A DNA stretch of 5,386 bases, from the sequence record NC_001422.1, one strand, 5' to 3'. The translations under genes were made by a program, and so were the position numbers. Source of the DNA: Escherichia phage phiX174. Positions 1-5,386 of this stretch are shown piece after piece. The notes beneath the pieces are model-generated. The model had not been told where the DNA came from and did no database searches. It worked only from the letters and a program-made list of their open reading frames with translations. Position 1 is the first letter of the stretch; every line of letters starts with the position of its first letter.

Positions 1-51
1 GAGTTTTATCGCTTCCATGACGCAGAAGTTAACACTTTCGGATATTTCTGA
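1..51 (+). CDS. B: Internal scaffolding protein B, C-terminal segment (continues from window end across the circular junction)
   Basis: The B frame from ATG 5075 to 5386 is exactly 104 codons, then continues at 1: gag ttt tat cgc ttc cat gac gca gaa gtt aac act ttc gga tat ttc tga ([16 protein letters not shown]), stop TGA 49-51. Total 120 aa, matching phiX174 gpB. Confidence 0.93.
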
Positions 52-136
52 TGAGTCGAAAAATTATCTTGATAAAGCAGGAATTACTACTGCTTGTTTA
101 CGAATTAAATCGAAGTGGACTGCTGGCGGAAAATGA
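1..136 (+). CDS. A: Replication initiator protein A / A*, C-terminal segment (continues from window end across the circular junction)
   Basis: The reading frame open from ATG 3981 runs without a stop to 5386 (1406 nt, leaving 2 nt of a split codon). Bases 5385-5386 plus base 1 give CAG, and the frame continues 2..136 to TGA at 134-136. Joined translation ends ...[52 protein letters not shown]. Total 1542 nt = 513 aa, the known gpA length. Confidence 0.93.
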
Positions 137-221
137 GAAAATTCGACCTATCCTTGCGCAGCTCGAGAAGCTCTTACTTTGCGACCTTTCGCCATCAACT
201 AACGATTCTGTCAAAAACTGA
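51..221 (+). CDS. K: Protein K (small nonessential membrane-associated protein, modulates burst size)
   Basis: ATG at 51-53 shares its A with the B stop (TGATG at 49-53); ORF ends TGA 219-221; 56 aa. It overlaps the end of A and the start of C in a third frame. The translation begins [20 protein letters not shown], which I recognise as phiX174 K. It is absent from the ORF track, probably because it is under that track's size cut-off. Confidence 0.85.
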
Positions 222-393
222 CGCGTTGGATGAGGAGAAGTGGCTTAATATGCTTGGCACGTTCGTCAAGGACTGGTTTAGATATGAGTCACATTTTGTT
301 CATGGTAGAGATTCTCTTGTTGACATTTTAAAAGAGCGTGGATTACTATCTGAGTCCGATGCTGTTCAACCACTAATAGGTAAGAAATCATGA
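133..393 (+). CDS. C: Protein C (DNA maturation; switch from RF replication to ssDNA synthesis/packaging)
   Basis: ORF track 115..393; canonical start is the second Met at 133 ([11 protein letters not shown]...), whose ATG overlaps the A stop as ATGA (133-136). GGCGGA lies 3-8 nt upstream as a weak Shine-Dalgarno. Stop TGA 391-393 overlaps the D start. 86 aa. Confidence 0.9.
320..358 (+). promoter_or_regulatory. Promoter pD (inside gene C): -35 TTGACA 320-325, -10 TACTAT 344-349, transcript start near G358
   Basis: Perfect -35 hexamer TTGACA at 320-325, an 18-bp spacer, then TACTAT (4/6 to TATAAT) at 344-349. The sequence GATGC at 358-362 matches my recollection of the 5' end of the D mRNA. 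Spacing and start are consistent with a sigma70 promoter. Confidence 0.6.
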
Positions 394-848
394 GTCAAGT
401 TACTGAACAATCCGTACGTTTCCAGACCGCTTTGGCCTCTATTAAGCTCATTCAGGCTTCTGCCGTTTTGGATTTAACCGAAGATGATTTCGATTTTCTG
501 ACGAGTAACAAAGTTTGGATTGCTACTGACCGCTCTCGTGCTCGTCGCTGCGTTGAGGCTTGCGTTTATGGTACGCTGGACTTTGTGGGATACCCTCGCT
601 TTCCTGCTCCTGTTGAGTTTATTGCTGCCGTCATTGCTTATTATGTTCATCCCGTCAACATTCAAACGGCCTGTCTCATCATGGAAGGCGCTGAATTTAC
701 GGAAAACATTATTAATGGCGTCGAGCGTCCGGTTAAAGCCGCTGAATTGTTCGCGTTTACCTTGCGTGTACGCGCAGGAAACACTGACGTTCTTACTGAC
801 GCAGAAGAAAACGTGCGTCAAAAATTACGTGCGGAAGGAGTGATGTAA
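390..848 (+). CDS. D: External scaffolding protein D
   Basis: ORF track 390..848, 152 aa, [22 protein letters not shown]... recognised as phiX174 gpD. ATG 390-392 overlaps the C stop (ATGA); stop TAA 846-848 overlaps the J start (TAATG). Confidence 0.96.
   Translation: MSQVTEQSVRFQTALASIKLIQASAVLDLTEDDFDFLTSNKVWIATDRSRARRCVEACVYGTLDFVGYPRFPAPVEFIAAVIAYYVHPVNIQTACLIMEGAEFTENIINGVERPVKAAELFAFTLRVRAGNTDVLTDAEENVRQKLRAEGVM
568..843 (+). CDS. E: Lysis protein E (single-gene lysis; MraY inhibitor), embedded in gene D in the +1 frame
   Basis: ORF track 520..843; canonical start is the internal Met at 568 (MVRWTLWDTLAFLLLLSLLLPSLLIMFIPSTFKRP...), 91 aa. It has a hydrophobic N-terminal transmembrane segment and a basic C-terminus. 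GAGG at 555-558 is a Shine-Dalgarno 9 nt upstream. Stop TGA 841-843. Confidence 0.93.
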   Translation: MVRWTLWDTLAFLLLLSLLLPSLLIMFIPSTFKRPVSSWKALNLRKTLLMASSVRLKPLNCSRLPCVYAQETLTFLLTQKKTCVKNYVRKE

Positions 849-964
849 TGTCTAAAGGTAAAAAACGTTCTGGCGCTCGCCCTGGTCGTCCGCAGCCGTT
901 GCGAGGTACTAAAGGCAAGCGTAAAGGCGCTCGTCTTTGGTATGTAGGTGGTCAACAATTTTAA
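848..964 (+). CDS. J: Small basic DNA-binding/packaging protein J
   Basis: ATG 848-850 to TAA 962-964; translation MSKGKKRSGARPGRPQPLRGTKGKRKGARLWYVGGQQF (38 aa, about one third Lys/Arg). GAAGGAG at 833-839 is a Shine-Dalgarno. It is absent from the ORF track, probably because it is under that track's size cut-off. Confidence 0.92.
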   Translation: MSKGKKRSGARPGRPQPLRGTKGKRKGARLWYVGGQQF

Positions 965-968
965 TTGC

Positions 969-984
969 AGGGGCTTCGGCCCCT
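969..984 (+). terminator. J-F intergenic hairpin (TJ, inefficient transcription terminator / mRNA-stabilising stem-loop)
   Basis: AGGGGC (969-974) / TTCG loop (975-978) / GCCCCT (979-984): a 6-bp GC-rich stem with a UUCG-type tetraloop, directly after the J stop. The downstream tract (TTACTTG) is only weakly U-rich, so any termination would be partial. This fits the known attenuated read-through into F. Confidence 0.55.
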
Positions 985-1000
985 TACTTGAGGATAAATT

Positions 1001-2284
1001 ATGTCTAATATTCAAACTGGCGCCGAGCGTATGCCGCATGACCTTTCCCATCTTGGCTTCCTTGCTGGTCAGATTGGTCGTCTTATTACCATTTCAACTA
1101 CTCCGGTTATCGCTGGCGACTCCTTCGAGATGGACGCCGTTGGCGCTCTCCGTCTTTCTCCATTGCGTCGTGGCCTTGCTATTGACTCTACTGTAGACAT
1201 TTTTACTTTTTATGTCCCTCATCGTCACGTTTATGGTGAACAGTGGATTAAGTTCATGAAGGATGGTGTTAATGCCACTCCTCTCCCGACTGTTAACACT
1301 ACTGGTTATATTGACCATGCCGCTTTTCTTGGCACGATTAACCCTGATACCAATAAAATCCCTAAGCATTTGTTTCAGGGTTATTTGAATATCTATAACA
1401 ACTATTTTAAAGCGCCGTGGATGCCTGACCGTACCGAGGCTAACCCTAATGAGCTTAATCAAGATGATGCTCGTTATGGTTTCCGTTGCTGCCATCTCAA
1501 AAACATTTGGACTGCTCCGCTTCCTCCTGAGACTGAGCTTTCTCGCCAAATGACGACTTCTACCACATCTATTGACATTATGGGTCTGCAAGCTGCTTAT
1601 GCTAATTTGCATACTGACCAAGAACGTGATTACTTCATGCAGCGTTACCATGATGTTATTTCTTCATTTGGAGGTAAAACCTCTTATGACGCTGACAACC
1701 GTCCTTTACTTGTCATGCGCTCTAATCTCTGGGCATCTGGCTATGATGTTGATGGAACTGACCAAACGTCGTTAGGCCAGTTTTCTGGTCGTGTTCAACA
1801 GACCTATAAACATTCTGTGCCGCGTTTCTTTGTTCCTGAGCATGGCACTATGTTTACTCTTGCGCTTGTTCGTTTTCCGCCTACTGCGACTAAAGAGATT
1901 CAGTACCTTAACGCTAAAGGTGCTTTGACTTATACCGATATTGCTGGCGACCCTGTTTTGTATGGCAACTTGCCGCCGCGTGAAATTTCTATGAAGGATG
2001 TTTTCCGTTCTGGTGATTCGTCTAAGAAGTTTAAGATTGCTGAGGGTCAGTGGTATCGTTATGCGCCTTCGTATGTTTCTCCTGCTTATCACCTTCTTGA
2101 AGGCTTCCCATTCATTCAGGAACCGCCTTCTGGTGATTTGCAAGAACGCGTACTTATTCGCCACCATGATTATGACCAGTGTTTCCAGTCCGTTCAGTTG
2201 TTGCAGTGGAATAGTCAGGTTAAATTTAATGTGACCGTTTATCGCAATCTGCCGACCACTCGCGATTCAATCATGACTTCGTGA
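1001..2284 (+). CDS. F: Major capsid protein F
   Basis: ORF track 1001..2284, 427 aa, MSNIQTGAERMPHDLSHLGFLAGQIGRLITIS... recognised as phiX174 gpF. GAGG at 990-993 is a Shine-Dalgarno. Stop TGA 2282-2284. Confidence 0.97.
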   Translation: MSNIQTGAERMPHDLSHLGFLAGQIGRLITISTTPVIAGDSFEMDAVGALRLSPLRRGLAIDSTVDIFTFYVPHRHVYGEQWIKFMKDGVNATPLPTVNTTGYIDHAAFLGTINPDTNKIPKHLFQGYLNIYNNYFKAPWMPDRTEANPNELNQDDARYGFRCCHLKNIWTAPLPPETELSRQMTTSTTSIDIMGLQAAYANLHTDQERDYFMQRYHDVISSFGGKTSYDADNRPLLVMRSNLWASGYDVDGTDQTSLGQFSGRVQQTYKHSVPRFFVPEHGTMFTLALVRFPPTATKEIQYLNAKGALTYTDIAGDPVLYGNLPPREISMKDVFRSGDSSKKFKIAEGQWYRYAPSYVSPAYHLLEGFPFIQEPPSGDLQERVLIRHHDYDQCFQSVQLLQWNSQVKFNVTVYRNLPTTRDSIMTS

Positions 2285-2300
2285 TAAAAGATTGAGTGTG

Positions 2301-2360
2301 AGGTTATAACGCCGAAGCGGTAAAAATTTTAATTTTTGCCGCTGAGGGGTTGACCAAGCG
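2301..2360 (+). other. F-G intergenic structured region: long A/T-rich hairpin (2317-2342); site of the primosome assembly (PriA / n-prime recognition) signal used for complementary-strand synthesis; may also act as terminator TF
   Basis: Inverted repeat GCGGTAAAAATT (2317-2328) / TT / AATTTTTGCCGC (2331-2342) with a single T opposite G (a G-U wobble pair if folded as RNA). From memory the phiX174 PriA (factor Y) recognition hairpin maps to the F-G intergenic region. Exact boundaries are approximate. Confidence 0.6.
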
Positions 2361-2394
2361 AAGCGCGGTAGGTTTTCTGCTTAGGAGTTTAATC

Positions 2395-2922
2395 ATGTTT
2401 CAGACTTTTATTTCTCGCCATAATTCAAACTTTTTTTCTGATAAGCTGGTTCTCACTTCTGTTACTCCAGCTTCTTCGGCACCTGTTTTACAGACACCTA
2501 AAGCTACATCGTCAACGTTATATTTTGATAGTTTGACGGTTAATGCTGGTAATGGTGGTTTTCTTCATTGCATTCAGATGGATACATCTGTCAACGCCGC
2601 TAATCAGGTTGTTTCTGTTGGTGCTGATATTGCTTTTGATGCCGACCCTAAATTTTTTGCCTGTTTGGTTCGCTTTGAGTCTTCTTCGGTTCCGACTACC
2701 CTCCCGACTGCCTATGATGTTTATCCTTTGAATGGTCGCCATGATGGTGGTTATTATACCGTCAAGGACTGTGTGACTATTGACGTCCTTCCCCGTACGC
2801 CGGGCAATAACGTTTATGTTGGTTTCATGGTTTGGTCTAACTTTACCGCTACTAAATGCCGCGGATTGGTTTCGCTGAATCAGGTTATTAAAGAGATTAT
2901 TTGTCTCCAGCCACTTAAGTGA
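2395..2922 (+). CDS. G: Major spike protein G
   Basis: ORF track 2350..2922; canonical start is the Met at 2395 ([23 protein letters not shown]...), preceded by AGGAG at 2383-2387. 175 aa. Stop TGA 2920-2922. Confidence 0.95.
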
Positions 2923-2930
2923 GGTGATTT

Positions 2931-3917
2931 ATGTTTGGTGCTATTGCTGGCGGTATTGCTTCTGCTCTTGCTGGTGGCGCCATGTCTAAATTGTTTGGAG
3001 GCGGTCAAAAAGCCGCCTCCGGTGGCATTCAAGGTGATGTGCTTGCTACCGATAACAATACTGTAGGCATGGGTGATGCTGGTATTAAATCTGCCATTCA
3101 AGGCTCTAATGTTCCTAACCCTGATGAGGCCGCCCCTAGTTTTGTTTCTGGTGCTATGGCTAAAGCTGGTAAAGGACTTCTTGAAGGTACGTTGCAGGCT
3201 GGCACTTCTGCCGTTTCTGATAAGTTGCTTGATTTGGTTGGACTTGGTGGCAAGTCTGCCGCTGATAAAGGAAAGGATACTCGTGATTATCTTGCTGCTG
3301 CATTTCCTGAGCTTAATGCTTGGGAGCGTGCTGGTGCTGATGCTTCCTCTGCTGGTATGGTTGACGCCGGATTTGAGAATCAAAAAGAGCTTACTAAAAT
3401 GCAACTGGACAATCAGAAAGAGATTGCCGAGATGCAAAATGAGACTCAAAAAGAGATTGCTGGCATTCAGTCGGCGACTTCACGCCAGAATACGAAAGAC
3501 CAGGTATATGCACAAAATGAGATGCTTGCTTATCAACAGAAGGAGTCTACTGCTCGCGTTGCGTCTATTATGGAAAACACCAATCTTTCCAAGCAACAGC
3601 AGGTTTCCGAGATTATGCGCCAAATGCTTACTCAAGCTCAAACGGCTGGTCAGTATTTTACCAATGACCAAATCAAAGAAATGACTCGCAAGGTTAGTGC
3701 TGAGGTTGACTTAGTTCATCAGCAAACGCAGAATCAGCGGTATGGCTCTTCTCATATTGGCGCTACTGCAAAGGATATTTCTAATGTCGTCACTGATGCT
3801 GCTTCTGGTGTGGTTGATATTTTTCATGGTATTGATAAAGCTGTTGCCGATACTTGGAACAATTTCTGGAAAGACGGTAAAGCTGATGGTATTGGCTCTA
3901 ATTTGTCTAGGAAATAA
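2931..3917 (+). CDS. H: Minor spike / DNA pilot protein H
   Basis: ORF track 2931..3917, 328 aa. GAGGTGA at 2920-2926 is a Shine-Dalgarno overlapping the G stop. The N-terminus is Gly/Ala-rich ([25 protein letters not shown]...) and the middle is Gln/Glu-rich, as in phiX174 gpH. Confidence 0.96.
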
Positions 3918-3926
3918 CCGTCAGGA

Positions 3927-3962
3927 TTGACACCCTCCCAATTGTATGTTTTCATGCCTCCA
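3927..3962 (+). promoter_or_regulatory. Promoter pA (H-A intergenic): -35 TTGACA 3927-3932; transcript start near A3962
   Basis: Perfect TTGACA at 3927-3932. AAATCTTGG at 3962-3970 matches my recollection of the 5' end of the A mRNA. The -10 element is not a clean consensus (TATGTT 3945-3950 or TTTTCA 3950-3955), so the exact hexamer assignment is uncertain. Confidence 0.55.
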
Positions 3963-3980
3963 AATCTTGGAGGCTTTTTT
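3956..3980 (+). terminator. Rho-independent terminator TH (after gene H, immediately before gene A)
   Basis: GCCTCCAA (3956-3963) / ATC loop / TTGGAGGC (3967-3974): a perfect 8-bp stem followed by TTTTTT (3975-3980). The GGAGG in the 3' arm doubles as the gene A Shine-Dalgarno. Confidence 0.75.
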
Positions 3981-5386
3981 ATGGTTCGTTCTTATTACCC
4001 TTCTGAATGTCACGCTGATTATTTTGACTTTGAGCGTATCGAGGCTCTTAAACCTGCTATTGAGGCTTGTGGCATTTCTACTCTTTCTCAATCCCCAATG
4101 CTTGGCTTCCATAAGCAGATGGATAACCGCATCAAGCTCTTGGAAGAGATTCTGTCTTTTCGTATGCAGGGCGTTGAGTTCGATAATGGTGATATGTATG
4201 TTGACGGCCATAAGGCTGCTTCTGACGTTCGTGATGAGTTTGTATCTGTTACTGAGAAGTTAATGGATGAATTGGCACAATGCTACAATGTGCTCCCCCA
4301 ACTTGATATTAATAACACTATAGACCACCGCCCCGAAGGGGACGAAAAATGGTTTTTAGAGAACGAGAAGACGGTTACGCAGTTTTGCCGCAAGCTGGCT
4401 GCTGAACGCCCTCTTAAGGATATTCGCGATGAGTATAATTACCCCAAAAAGAAAGGTATTAAGGATGAGTGTTCAAGATTGCTGGAGGCCTCCACTATGA
4501 AATCGCGTAGAGGCTTTGCTATTCAGCGTTTGATGAATGCAATGCGACAGGCTCATGCTGATGGTTGGTTTATCGTTTTTGACACTCTCACGTTGGCTGA
4601 CGACCGATTAGAGGCGTTTTATGATAATCCCAATGCTTTGCGTGACTATTTTCGTGATATTGGTCGTATGGTTCTTGCTGCCGAGGGTCGCAAGGCTAAT
4701 GATTCACACGCCGACTGCTATCAGTATTTTTGTGTGCCTGAGTATGGTACAGCTAATGGCCGTCTTCATTTCCATGCGGTGCACTTTATGCGGACACTTC
4801 CTACAGGTAGCGTTGACCCTAATTTTGGTCGTCGGGTACGCAATCGCCGCCAGTTAAATAGCTTGCAAAATACGTGGCCTTATGGTTACAGTATGCCCAT
4901 CGCAGTTCGCTACACGCAGGACGCTTTTTCACGTTCTGGTTGGTTGTGGCCTGTTGATGCTAAAGGTGAGCCGCTTAAAGCTACCAGTTATATGGCTGTT
5001 GGTTTCTATGTGGCTAAATACGTTAACAAAAAGTCAGATATGGACCTTGCTGCTAAAGGTCTAGGAGCTAAAGAATGGAACAACTCACTAAAAACCAAGC
5101 TGTCGCTACTTCCCAAGAAGCTGTTCAGAATCAGAATGAGCCGCAACTTCGGGATGAAAATGCTCACAATGACAAATCTGTCCACGGAGTGCTTAATCCA
5201 ACTTACCAAGCTGGGTTACGACGCGACGCCGTTCAACCAGATATTGAAGCAGAACGCAAAAAGAGAGATGAGATTGAGGCTGGGAAAAGTTACTGTAGCC
5301 GACGTTTTGGCGGCGCAACCTGTGACGACAAATCTGCTCAAATTTATGCGCGCTTCGATAAAAATGATTGGCGTATCCAACCTGCA
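3981..5386 (+). CDS. A: Replication initiator protein A (HUH rolling-circle endonuclease), N-terminal 468 codons; continues at window positions 1..136
   Basis: ATG 3981 (MVRSYYPSECHADYFDFERIEALKP...) preceded by GGAGG. The frame stays open to the window end. HUH motif HFHAVHF is encoded at 4767-4787. Codons 343 and 347 are both Tyr (TAT 5007-5009, TAC 5019-5021) in VGFYVAKYVNKK, matching the known catalytic Tyr343/Tyr347 of gpA. The supplied ORF track omits this frame, probably because there is no in-window stop. Confidence 0.95.
   Translation, partial: MVRSYYPSECHADYFDFERIEALKPAIEACGISTLSQSPMLGFHKQMDNRIKLLEEILSFRMQGVEFDNGDMYVDGHKAASDVRDEFVSVTEKLMDELAQCYNVLPQLDINNTIDHRPEGDEKWFLENEKTVTQFCRKLAAERPLKDIRDEYNYPKKKGIKDECSRLLEASTMKSRRGFAIQRLMNAMRQAHADGWFIVFDTLTLADDRLEAFYDNPNALRDYFRDIGRMVLAAEGRKANDSHADCYQYFCVPEYGTANGRLHFHAVHFMRTLPTGSVDPNFGRRVRNRRQLNSLQNTWPYGYSMPIAVRYTQDAFSRSGWLWPVDAKGEPLKATSYMAVGFYVAKYVNKKSDMDLAAKGLGAKEWNNSLKTKLSLLPKKLFRIRMSRNFGMKMLTMTNLSTECLIQLTKLGYDATPFNQILKQNAKREMRLRLGKVTVADVLAAQPVTTNLLKFMRASIKMIGVSNL
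4299..4328 (+). other. Viral (+) strand origin of rolling-circle replication; gpA nick site between G4305 and A4306
   Basis: The 30-nt sequence CAACTTGATATTAATAACACTATAGACCAC is present at 4299-4328, inside the gene A coding region. This is the phiX174 origin core recognised and cleaved by gpA. Confidence 0.88.
4497..5386 (+). CDS. A*: Protein A* (in-frame internal translation start within gene A); continues at window positions 1..136
   Basis: ATG at 4497-4499 is in frame with A ((4497-3981) = 516 = 172 codons) and is preceded by GGAGG at 4484-4488 with 8-nt spacing. The product would be 341 aa, matching known A*. Confidence 0.8.
   Translation, partial: MKSRRGFAIQRLMNAMRQAHADGWFIVFDTLTLADDRLEAFYDNPNALRDYFRDIGRMVLAAEGRKANDSHADCYQYFCVPEYGTANGRLHFHAVHFMRTLPTGSVDPNFGRRVRNRRQLNSLQNTWPYGYSMPIAVRYTQDAFSRSGWLWPVDAKGEPLKATSYMAVGFYVAKYVNKKSDMDLAAKGLGAKEWNNSLKTKLSLLPKKLFRIRMSRNFGMKMLTMTNLSTECLIQLTKLGYDATPFNQILKQNAKREMRLRLGKVTVADVLAAQPVTTNLLKFMRASIKMIGVSNL
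4863..4899 (+). promoter_or_regulatory. Promoter pB (inside gene A): -35 TTGCAA 4863-4868, -10 TACAGT 4887-4892, start near A4899
   Basis: TTGCAA (5/6 to TTGACA), an 18-bp spacer, then TACAGT (4/6 to TATAAT). ATCGC at 4899-4903 fits my recollection of the B mRNA 5' end. The assignment is less certain than pD. Confidence 0.5.
5075..5386 (+). CDS. B: Internal scaffolding protein B, N-terminal 104 codons (nested in gene A in a different frame); continues at window positions 1..51
   Basis: ATG 5075-5077 preceded by AGGAG at 5063-5067. Translation MEQLTKNQAVATSQEAVQNQNEPQLRDENAHNDKSVHGVLNPTYQAGLRR... recognised as phiX174 gpB. It is missing from the ORF track, probably because there is no stop within the window. 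Confidence 0.93.
   Translation, partial: MEQLTKNQAVATSQEAVQNQNEPQLRDENAHNDKSVHGVLNPTYQAGLRRDAVQPDIEAERKKRDEIEAGKSYCSRRFGGATCDDKSAQIYARFDKNDWRIQPA

Follow-up and report, generated by a model that had tools for sequence, protein, structure and literature searches.

Stop/start codon overlaps at four gene junctions of bacteriophage phiX174: probably a mixed set rather than one translationally coupled chain

The stretch of DNA analysed here (the window) is the complete 5386-nt genome of bacteriophage phiX174 (Sinsheimervirus, Bullavirinae) in its standard numbering, and the features in question are four gene junctions, all on the plus strand, at which the stop codon of one gene shares nucleotides with the start codon of another. 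At the TGATG motif at 49-53, the TGA stop of gene B (49-51, frame 1) and the ATG of gene K (51-53, frame 0) overlap by 1 nt, the shared A51. Two ATGA motifs form 4-nt overlaps: at 133-136 between the ATG of gene C (133-135, frame 1) and the TGA stop of genes A and A* (134-136, frame 2), and at 390-393 between the ATG of gene D (390-392, frame 0) and the TGA stop of C (391-393). Finally, TAATG at 846-850 joins the TAA stop of D (846-848) to the ATG of gene J (848-850, frame 2) by a 1-nt overlap, the shared A848. The downstream genes are K (51..221, 56 aa, non-essential), C (133..393, 86 aa), D (390..848, 152 aa), encoding the external scaffolding protein, and J (848..964, 38 aa), encoding the DNA-binding core protein. 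The upstream genes A (3981..136), A* (4497..136) and B (5075..51, with its ATG at 5075 in frame 1) run across the window origin, and were checked by circular translation. The genes follow one another in the order A/A*-B-K-C-D-E-J-F-G-H at their published coordinates, with derived open reading frames (ORFs) that match the annotation of the deposited phiX174 record HM753665, taken as the reference for coordinates. Direct reading and circular re-translation place all four motifs at the positions and in the frames given by a first-pass annotation of this DNA, so that co-directional genes spaced by -4 or -1 nt are found at 4/4 junctions; the extreme compaction that it pointed out is equally real. 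Its picture of a chain of four consecutive junctions does not hold, as B to K and A to C use parallel reading frames of one and the same DNA and only C to D to J is serial; the K stop lies at 219-221, and no gene start follows it. On balance, the four overlaps are probably a mixed set rather than one coupled chain, with plausible coupling at B/K and A/C, an overlap that reflects packing at C/D, and a downstream gene capable of independent initiation at D/J.

The overlaps themselves are long-known and already described: the B-K, A-C, C-D and D-J overlaps annotated in phiX174 are identical to those discussed here, and finding them restates a known feature. The original phiX174 sequence papers of 1977-78 reportedly noted these junctions already. 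A genome-modularization study published in 2020 names exactly these start/stop overlaps, and a 'decompressed' phage devoid of them has been studied (Wright et al., bioRxiv 10.1101/2020.06.10.143693). As a discovery they thus deserve little weight, being classic for a genome that has been studied thoroughly, with spacings that are the commonest ones in prokaryotes.

The bare motifs are common, with 39 ATGA, 19 TGATG, and 14 TAATG in 5386 nt, and a motif by itself therefore means nothing. An overlap was counted only where an ORF of 38 aa or more ended in a stop sharing 1 or 4 nt with an ATG that opened at least 38 aa: the plus strand has six such overlaps, versus a mean of 0.07 + 0.15 (about 0.2) in 300 dinucleotide-preserving shuffles, none of which (0/300) reached four. 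The overlaps ATGA at 3681-3684 and TAATG at 4261-4265 are coincidences, falling on Met codons inside H and A, respectively, beside the stops of unannotated ORFs (3076.., 202 aa, and 3946.., 105 aa), and they illustrate how often the motif criterion gives false positives. All three motifs are also more frequent in the genome than in dinucleotide-preserving shuffles (39 versus 28.2+/-4.6 for ATGA, 19 versus 10.5+/-3.0 for TGATG, and 14 versus 8.4+/-2.9 for TAATG), as are plus-strand ORFs of at least 38 aa (20 versus 10.6, i.e., about twice as many); this excess is probably a codon-usage effect.

With regard to function, the -4 and -1 geometries of the phiX174 junctions are those that allow termination-reinitiation in E. 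coli, and they are also the commonest gene spacings in all prokaryotes (PMC12548453, PMC10666635). Four of five native E. coli ATGA pairs are coupled, the uncoupled one having an unstructured initiation region (PMC6728339), and a gap of ~20 nt almost abolishes coupling (PMC10666635). The E. coli pairs hyfHI, astDB, ydbH/ynbE, menDH, and trpB-trpA share with phiX174 the host translation machinery and the -4/-1 geometries, and B/K and A/C additionally share with the coupled pairs a weak independent initiation signal. However, initiation regions are structured in the tightly coupled E. coli pairs, which is not predicted for the phiX174 junctions, and the coupling of those pairs is known from premature-stop reporters with mRNA controls, whereas the phiX174 junctions are judged from sequence, comparison, and decompression data. 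Other small phages provide a further parallel in the MS2 coat-lysis and f1 gene VII-IX pairs, where the downstream gene likewise depends on translation of the upstream one; these cases nonetheless differ in that they involve a stable inhibitory hairpin, larger offsets (e.g., -50 nt), or both, and no such occlusion is predicted in phiX174.

The signals available for initiation differ strongly from one junction to the next. Shine-Dalgarno (SD) strength was calculated as the duplex dG with the 16S rRNA 3' end and expressed as a percentile among all genome positions. The value for K is -3.3 kcal/mol (39th percentile, i.e., background level), that for C is -4.8 kcal/mol at a spacing of 2 nt, which makes it unusable, and that for D is -3.7 kcal/mol (AGGT, 31st percentile). 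J has the AAGGAG sequence at 835..840, in the last codons of D, with a duplex-to-ATG spacing of 6 nt and a dG of -8.3 kcal/mol (3rd percentile, i.e., within the top 3% of genome positions). The predicted energy required to open the region from -18 to +12 around each start was compared to a sampled genome background with a mean of 12.0 kcal/mol: all four junction starts fall below this mean, between the 0th and 29th percentiles, with 7.7 kcal/mol for K, 9.9 for C, 9.7 for J, and only 4.6 for D. The latter is the lowest value of the sampled background (0th percentile), and decreases to 3.5 kcal/mol on mRNAs initiated at the pD promoter (see below). By these predictions, K and C would lack a credible SD, D would use an open, A-rich leader, and J would have a classical strong site. 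As far as efficient de novo initiation is concerned, K and C thus combine a weak or mis-spaced SD with a start region that is not occluded, while D and J do have initiation signals of their own.

These energies bear directly on one possible mechanism, in which the upstream ribosome would melt a hairpin that covers the start of the downstream gene, the situation known from MS2 coat-lysis and f1 gene VII-IX. RNA unfolding is one of the two accepted models of coupling (PMC12548453), and in minimum free energy folds, short helices do include parts of the start regions of K and J. However, the predictions reveal no stable structure of the MS2 type sequestering the ribosome-binding site at K, C, D, or J, and the only strongly occluded start among the eleven gene starts is that of gene E (568..843), with an opening cost of 17.3 kcal/mol (93rd percentile), outside the four junctions. 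The absence of predicted occlusion at all four junction starts argues against coupling through RNA unfolding; the predicted opening energies led to the rejection of this model, which is, in our view, quite improbable. As a separate observation, the high predicted structure at the E start (568) and the lowest one at the D start (390) fit the very low expression of E and the very high expression of D.

A survey of relatives allowed SD strength to be related to junction geometry. It covered 29 loci: the window; G4, NC13, WA14, and ID2; ID62, NC3, and phiK; a Vibrio microvirus (L009); and 20 IMG/VR contigs, found via alignment of protein D and including the lineage of contig L029, whose D is only 56% identical. 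Junctions were first annotated with tblastn and then refined to real start and stop codons, except in L029 (where an N and also a frame error occur near 2040) and in the Vibrio microvirus (only weak C and A hits), where they were set by reading the sequence; this gave 66 non-redundant junction sequences, in which an SD was considered strong at dG <= -6.8. In the homologous junctions of G4-like and alpha3-like Bullavirinae, gene order is as in phiX174, with TGATG at B/K throughout and ATGA at A/C in the G4-like phages. All four phiX174 geometries are present in ID2, whereas other genomes differ, with C/D at +1 and D/J at +42 in G4, C/D at -14 and D/J at -8 in WA14, and A/C at +26, C/D at +26 to +233 and D/J at +1 in the alpha3-like phages, and SD strength shifts in step. 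A strong SD precedes the downstream gene at 27/27 junctions with a gap of at least 12 nt, versus 6/38 of those that overlap or abut (-14 to +5), all six being D/J. Junctions that open thus seem to acquire a strong SD and closed ones to tolerate a weak one, the signature expected if proximity of the upstream stop can replace the SD.

The same survey also provides arguments for a simpler explanation, namely that the overlaps are a by-product of compaction and mutation, the T=1 capsid limiting genome length, -4/-1 overlaps arising easily by start gain or stop loss, and all downstream genes being initiated de novo. Consistent with this, the geometry of A/C, C/D, and D/J drifts among relatives, and the larger alpha3-like genomes (~6.05-6.26 kb) have opened A/C and C/D, while all four junctions are closed in the 5.39-kb phiX174 genome. 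The abundance of the motifs in the genome, the banality of the -4/-1 spacings among prokaryotes, and the existence of an uncoupled ATGA pair, E. coli bioBF, go in the same direction. The contrast in SD strength between opened and closed junctions would nevertheless be unexpected if proximity had no translational value, and K and C are left without a credible SD of their own. With the decompression data discussed below, which support both sides, we regard compaction alone as rather unlikely, though far from negligible.

Coupling does not fit C/D, in view of the position of promoter pD. This promoter lies within gene C, at 320..349 on the plus strand, with a -35 TTGACA element (320-325), an 18-nt spacer, and a -10 TACTAT element (344-349), i.e., 10/12 matches to the consensus; it was given as 320..358 in a previous study (PMC11527146 Table 1). 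Synonymous changes at V63-S75 of C (codons 63-75) are detrimental, in agreement with this location (bioRxiv 10.64898/2026.07.25.740675). Transcripts from pD start ~30 nt before the D ATG and are devoid of the C start codon, and no C-frame start codon is found between ~357 and 390. Hence, pD transcripts cannot bring ribosomes terminating C to the D start. According to the published transcription map, pD increases transcript flux 2.0-2.5-fold. This rise implies that a large share of the D-encoding mRNA is of the pD type. Protein C is a low-abundance regulator, and reinitiation on a given mRNA never yields more downstream than upstream product. By contrast, each procapsid requires 240 copies of D (record note).

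These data are difficult to reconcile with an obligatory relay, the strong version of the idea put forward in the first-pass annotation, whereby ribosomes would be handed on from B to K and from A to C to D to J, fixing the ratios of the proteins. The optimal -4/-1 spacing of all four junctions and the tight coupling of most E. coli pairs of this type would favour such a relay. Yet translation of D on mRNAs lacking the C start already contradicts its C to D step, as does the need for more D than reinitiation after C could provide per mRNA. In addition, the most open site of the genome is the D start, whose SD is sensitive to mutation: the weak SD-like element ATAGGT (376..381, plus strand, with AGGT at 378-381; dG -3.7) also forms codons I82-G83 of C, and synonymous changes at I82/G83 are detrimental, an effect assigned to the ribosome-binding site (RBS) of D (bioRxiv 10.64898/2026.07.25.740675). 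C/D thereby resembles the uncoupled bioBF pair of E. coli, with its weak SD, open structure, and de novo initiation.

Among relatives, C/D geometry varies from a 14-nt overlap to a 233-nt gap, with an SD dG of -3.7 to -5.9 at -14 to +5 and of -6.8 to -9.3 at +26 to +233, in the alpha3-like phages. Our preferred reading of this junction is that D would be initiated mainly de novo, with a weak but functional SD in an A-rich leader that is exceptionally poor in structure, and to a large extent on pD transcripts. The C/D overlap would then be essentially packing, a conclusion to which the position of pD leads directly and in which the share of D made from pD transcripts is inferred. The C/D junction is also a hotspot of length change in the alpha3-like phages: the spacer of NC3 (locus L005, 2468-2513) is a perfect 15-nt tandem repeat of 3.1 copies, with TACATTTGAGCTCTC as the unit and the C stop codon within it, and that of contig L021 reaches 233 nt.

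At D/J, the strong SD of J is itself a reason to doubt that the relay extends to this gene, as is the 42-nt distance from which G4 expresses J. D and J lie on the same mRNAs, judging by position, and a third frame ends at this junction, the TGA of gene E at 841-843 (plus strand) lying 5 nt before the J ATG, a feature absent from the first-pass annotation. D/J geometry takes the values -8, -1, +1, +12, and +42 nt in relatives, with an SD dG of -2.2 to -8.3 for the first three and of -8.7 to -8.8 for the last two, J starting 12 nt after D in the Vibrio relative and 42 nt after D in G4. J could thus initiate alone from the strong SD at the end of D, to which reinitiation by the many ribosomes finishing D may add. 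In other words, J can initiate independently, and a contribution of D/J coupling is possible but dispensable, given the natural 42-nt gap in G4. The origin of this gap can be read from the G4 sequence (L008, 2420-2480): relative to its close relative L011 (2425-2445), which has a TAATG overlap, the 42-nt spacer corresponds to a 43-nt insertion lying between two copies of the former junction, AAGGTGCCATGTAA ... AAGGAGTTATGTAATG. It is a natural 'decompression' by duplication, in which the SD, and even TAATG, were kept before J. Downstream of the gene, a GC-rich hairpin, gcaggggcttcggcccct, is present at ~967-984 (region 966-985), just 3' of J, and presumably corresponds to the known T_J terminator; a simple terminator scan reported a weak hairpin within gene J (918-931) rather than this one.

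The situation differs at B/K, where the 1-nt overlap is found in every relative with a K homolog, including contigs L018 and L022, which have a TAA stop, and where the SD dG ranges from -3.1 to -5.5. Its loss coincides with that of K: the overlap is missing only in L029 (TGAAG) and in the Vibrio microvirus L009 (TAACG), for which homology annotation and reading of the sequence detected no K homolog. In L009, the K start has disappeared at the B stop (3368-3375); in L029 (2161-2255), a 24-codon Leu-rich ORF in the K frame, with TTG at 2181 and ATG at 2184 as starts, may be a remnant of K. As promoter pB (4863..4899) precedes the B start, B is, by position, translatable on the same mRNAs as K, and K nonsense variants are tolerated (bioRxiv 10.64898/2026.07.25.740675). 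The proposed scenario is that K, having no usable SD, would be translated at a low level by ribosomes that end B and restart one base back. Termination-reinitiation after B is the most likely route to K, and coupling is plausible here as the most economical account of a non-essential, SD-less gene expressed at a low level.

A/C is the other junction at which coupling is plausible. Its product, protein C, is the switch from double-stranded replication to single-strand packaging. The ATGA overlap is kept in the phiX-like, G4-like, and L029 lineages with an SD dG of -4.8/-4.9 at a spacing of 2, whereas all alpha3-like phages have a 26-nt gap and a strong AGGAG, with a dG of -7.4 to -10.3 and a spacing of 5-6. 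The starts of A (3981) and A* (4497) lie upstream of pB, located at 4863..4899 (PMC11527146), and the later ATG and GTG codons of the A frame all have poor SDs; coupling from A to C is consequently possible only on mRNAs begun upstream of pB. A putative promoter overlapping the C start, btss49 (129..155), was judged weak or negligible by later modelling and was not used. Given its weak, mis-spaced SD, C would owe a substantial share of its translation to ribosomes terminating A or A*; we infer that this is probably the case, and one engineering experiment is consistent with it.

In this experiment, the overlaps were removed from the phage by decompression. The resulting phage is viable but less fit, with smaller burst and plaque sizes, and significant changes affect the A*, B, C, E, F, and H proteins, while D, J, and K, which were also quantified (from a single peptide each for J and K), show no significant change (bioRxiv 10.1101/2020.06.10.143693). 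Viability and the absence of significant change in D, J, and K are compatible with compaction alone, and the latter observation also goes against an obligatory relay, which, considering all of the above, is very improbable indeed. In contrast, the lower burst size and the smaller plaques are not what compaction alone would lead one to expect, and neither is the decrease in protein C, ~6-fold lower in the decompressed phage although A* rises, a change that its authors ascribe to loss of the A/C overlap and/or to the rewritten 5' region (bioRxiv 10.1101/2020.06.10.143693). C is the sole protein deficit mapping to one of these four junctions; B also fell, but its start lies elsewhere (bioRxiv 10.1101/2020.06.10.143693). 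Furthermore, expression models in which only promoters and terminators vary cannot reproduce the changes seen on decompression (PMC11527146). The difference in SD between phiX174 and the alpha3-like phages and the drop in C, confounded as it is, both favour A/C coupling. Of the translational coupling suggested for all four junctions in the first-pass annotation, what remains plausible concerns B/K and A/C, and not C/D, with pD inside C and an open D start, nor D/J, with its own strong SD; only B/K and A/C may depend on the direct passage of ribosomes from one gene to the next.

Several points weigh against even this restricted role of coupling. A search of the literature found neither a direct test of coupling nor ribosome profiling for phiX174. 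SD and folding energies are only crude predictors of translation, and bioBF is initiated de novo in E. coli despite a very weak SD (PMC6728339). The association between SD strength and distance rests on about four independent evolutionary transitions, so that nominal p-values overstate its support. At B/K, the conserved TGATG lies in triple-coding DNA, read in the A, B, and K frames (D-I-S-D-E in the A frame and G-Y-F* at the C-terminus of B), which confounds its conservation; the AT of the K ATG is supplied by a GAT codon, the commoner Asp codon (59% of Asp codons), and this conservation was not accepted as evidence of selection for coupling. K, followed through a single peptide, did not change significantly after separation from B (bioRxiv 10.1101/2020.06.10.143693). 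The separation amounts to ~14 nt by published coordinates (PMC11527146), which argues against a strict dependence of K on the 1-nt overlap. Lastly, the decrease in C is confounded by the rewritten 5' region, as stated by the authors of the experiment (bioRxiv 10.1101/2020.06.10.143693).

If the four overlaps are indeed a mixed set, they divide in a testable manner: coupling could set expression at B/K and A/C, while the C/D and D/J overlaps can be lost, and in nature were lost, without loss of expression. This split bears on the refactoring of small phage genomes. A broader, tentative suggestion, possible rather than probable, is that Bullavirinae repeatedly switch single genes between coupled and independent translation, an opened junction gaining a strong SD and the SD of a closed one decaying, so that C of phiX174 would be slaved to translation of A/A*. 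Junctions would open by insertion, by tandem duplication of the junction, or by a shift of stop or start, and the C:A ratio would, if this is true, be set by the efficiency of reinitiation and not by a promoter or RBS.

As to the sequence records, megablast with the window retrieved 126 phage records with at least 99% identity and 159 records covering at least 80% of it, phiX174 records being 99-100% identical to the window with the same coordinates. The whole phiX174 genome is present, with 99.9% identity, at 169-5631 on the minus strand of the 24,953-bp record MZ417522.1 ('Mycolicibacterium phage J1'), and the 5883-nt IMG/VR contig L010 is phiX174, with A (C-terminal 150 aa), B, K, C, D, and J 100% identical. 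Both look like contamination by the PhiX spike-in used as a sequencing control, or chimeric assembly, rather than biology.

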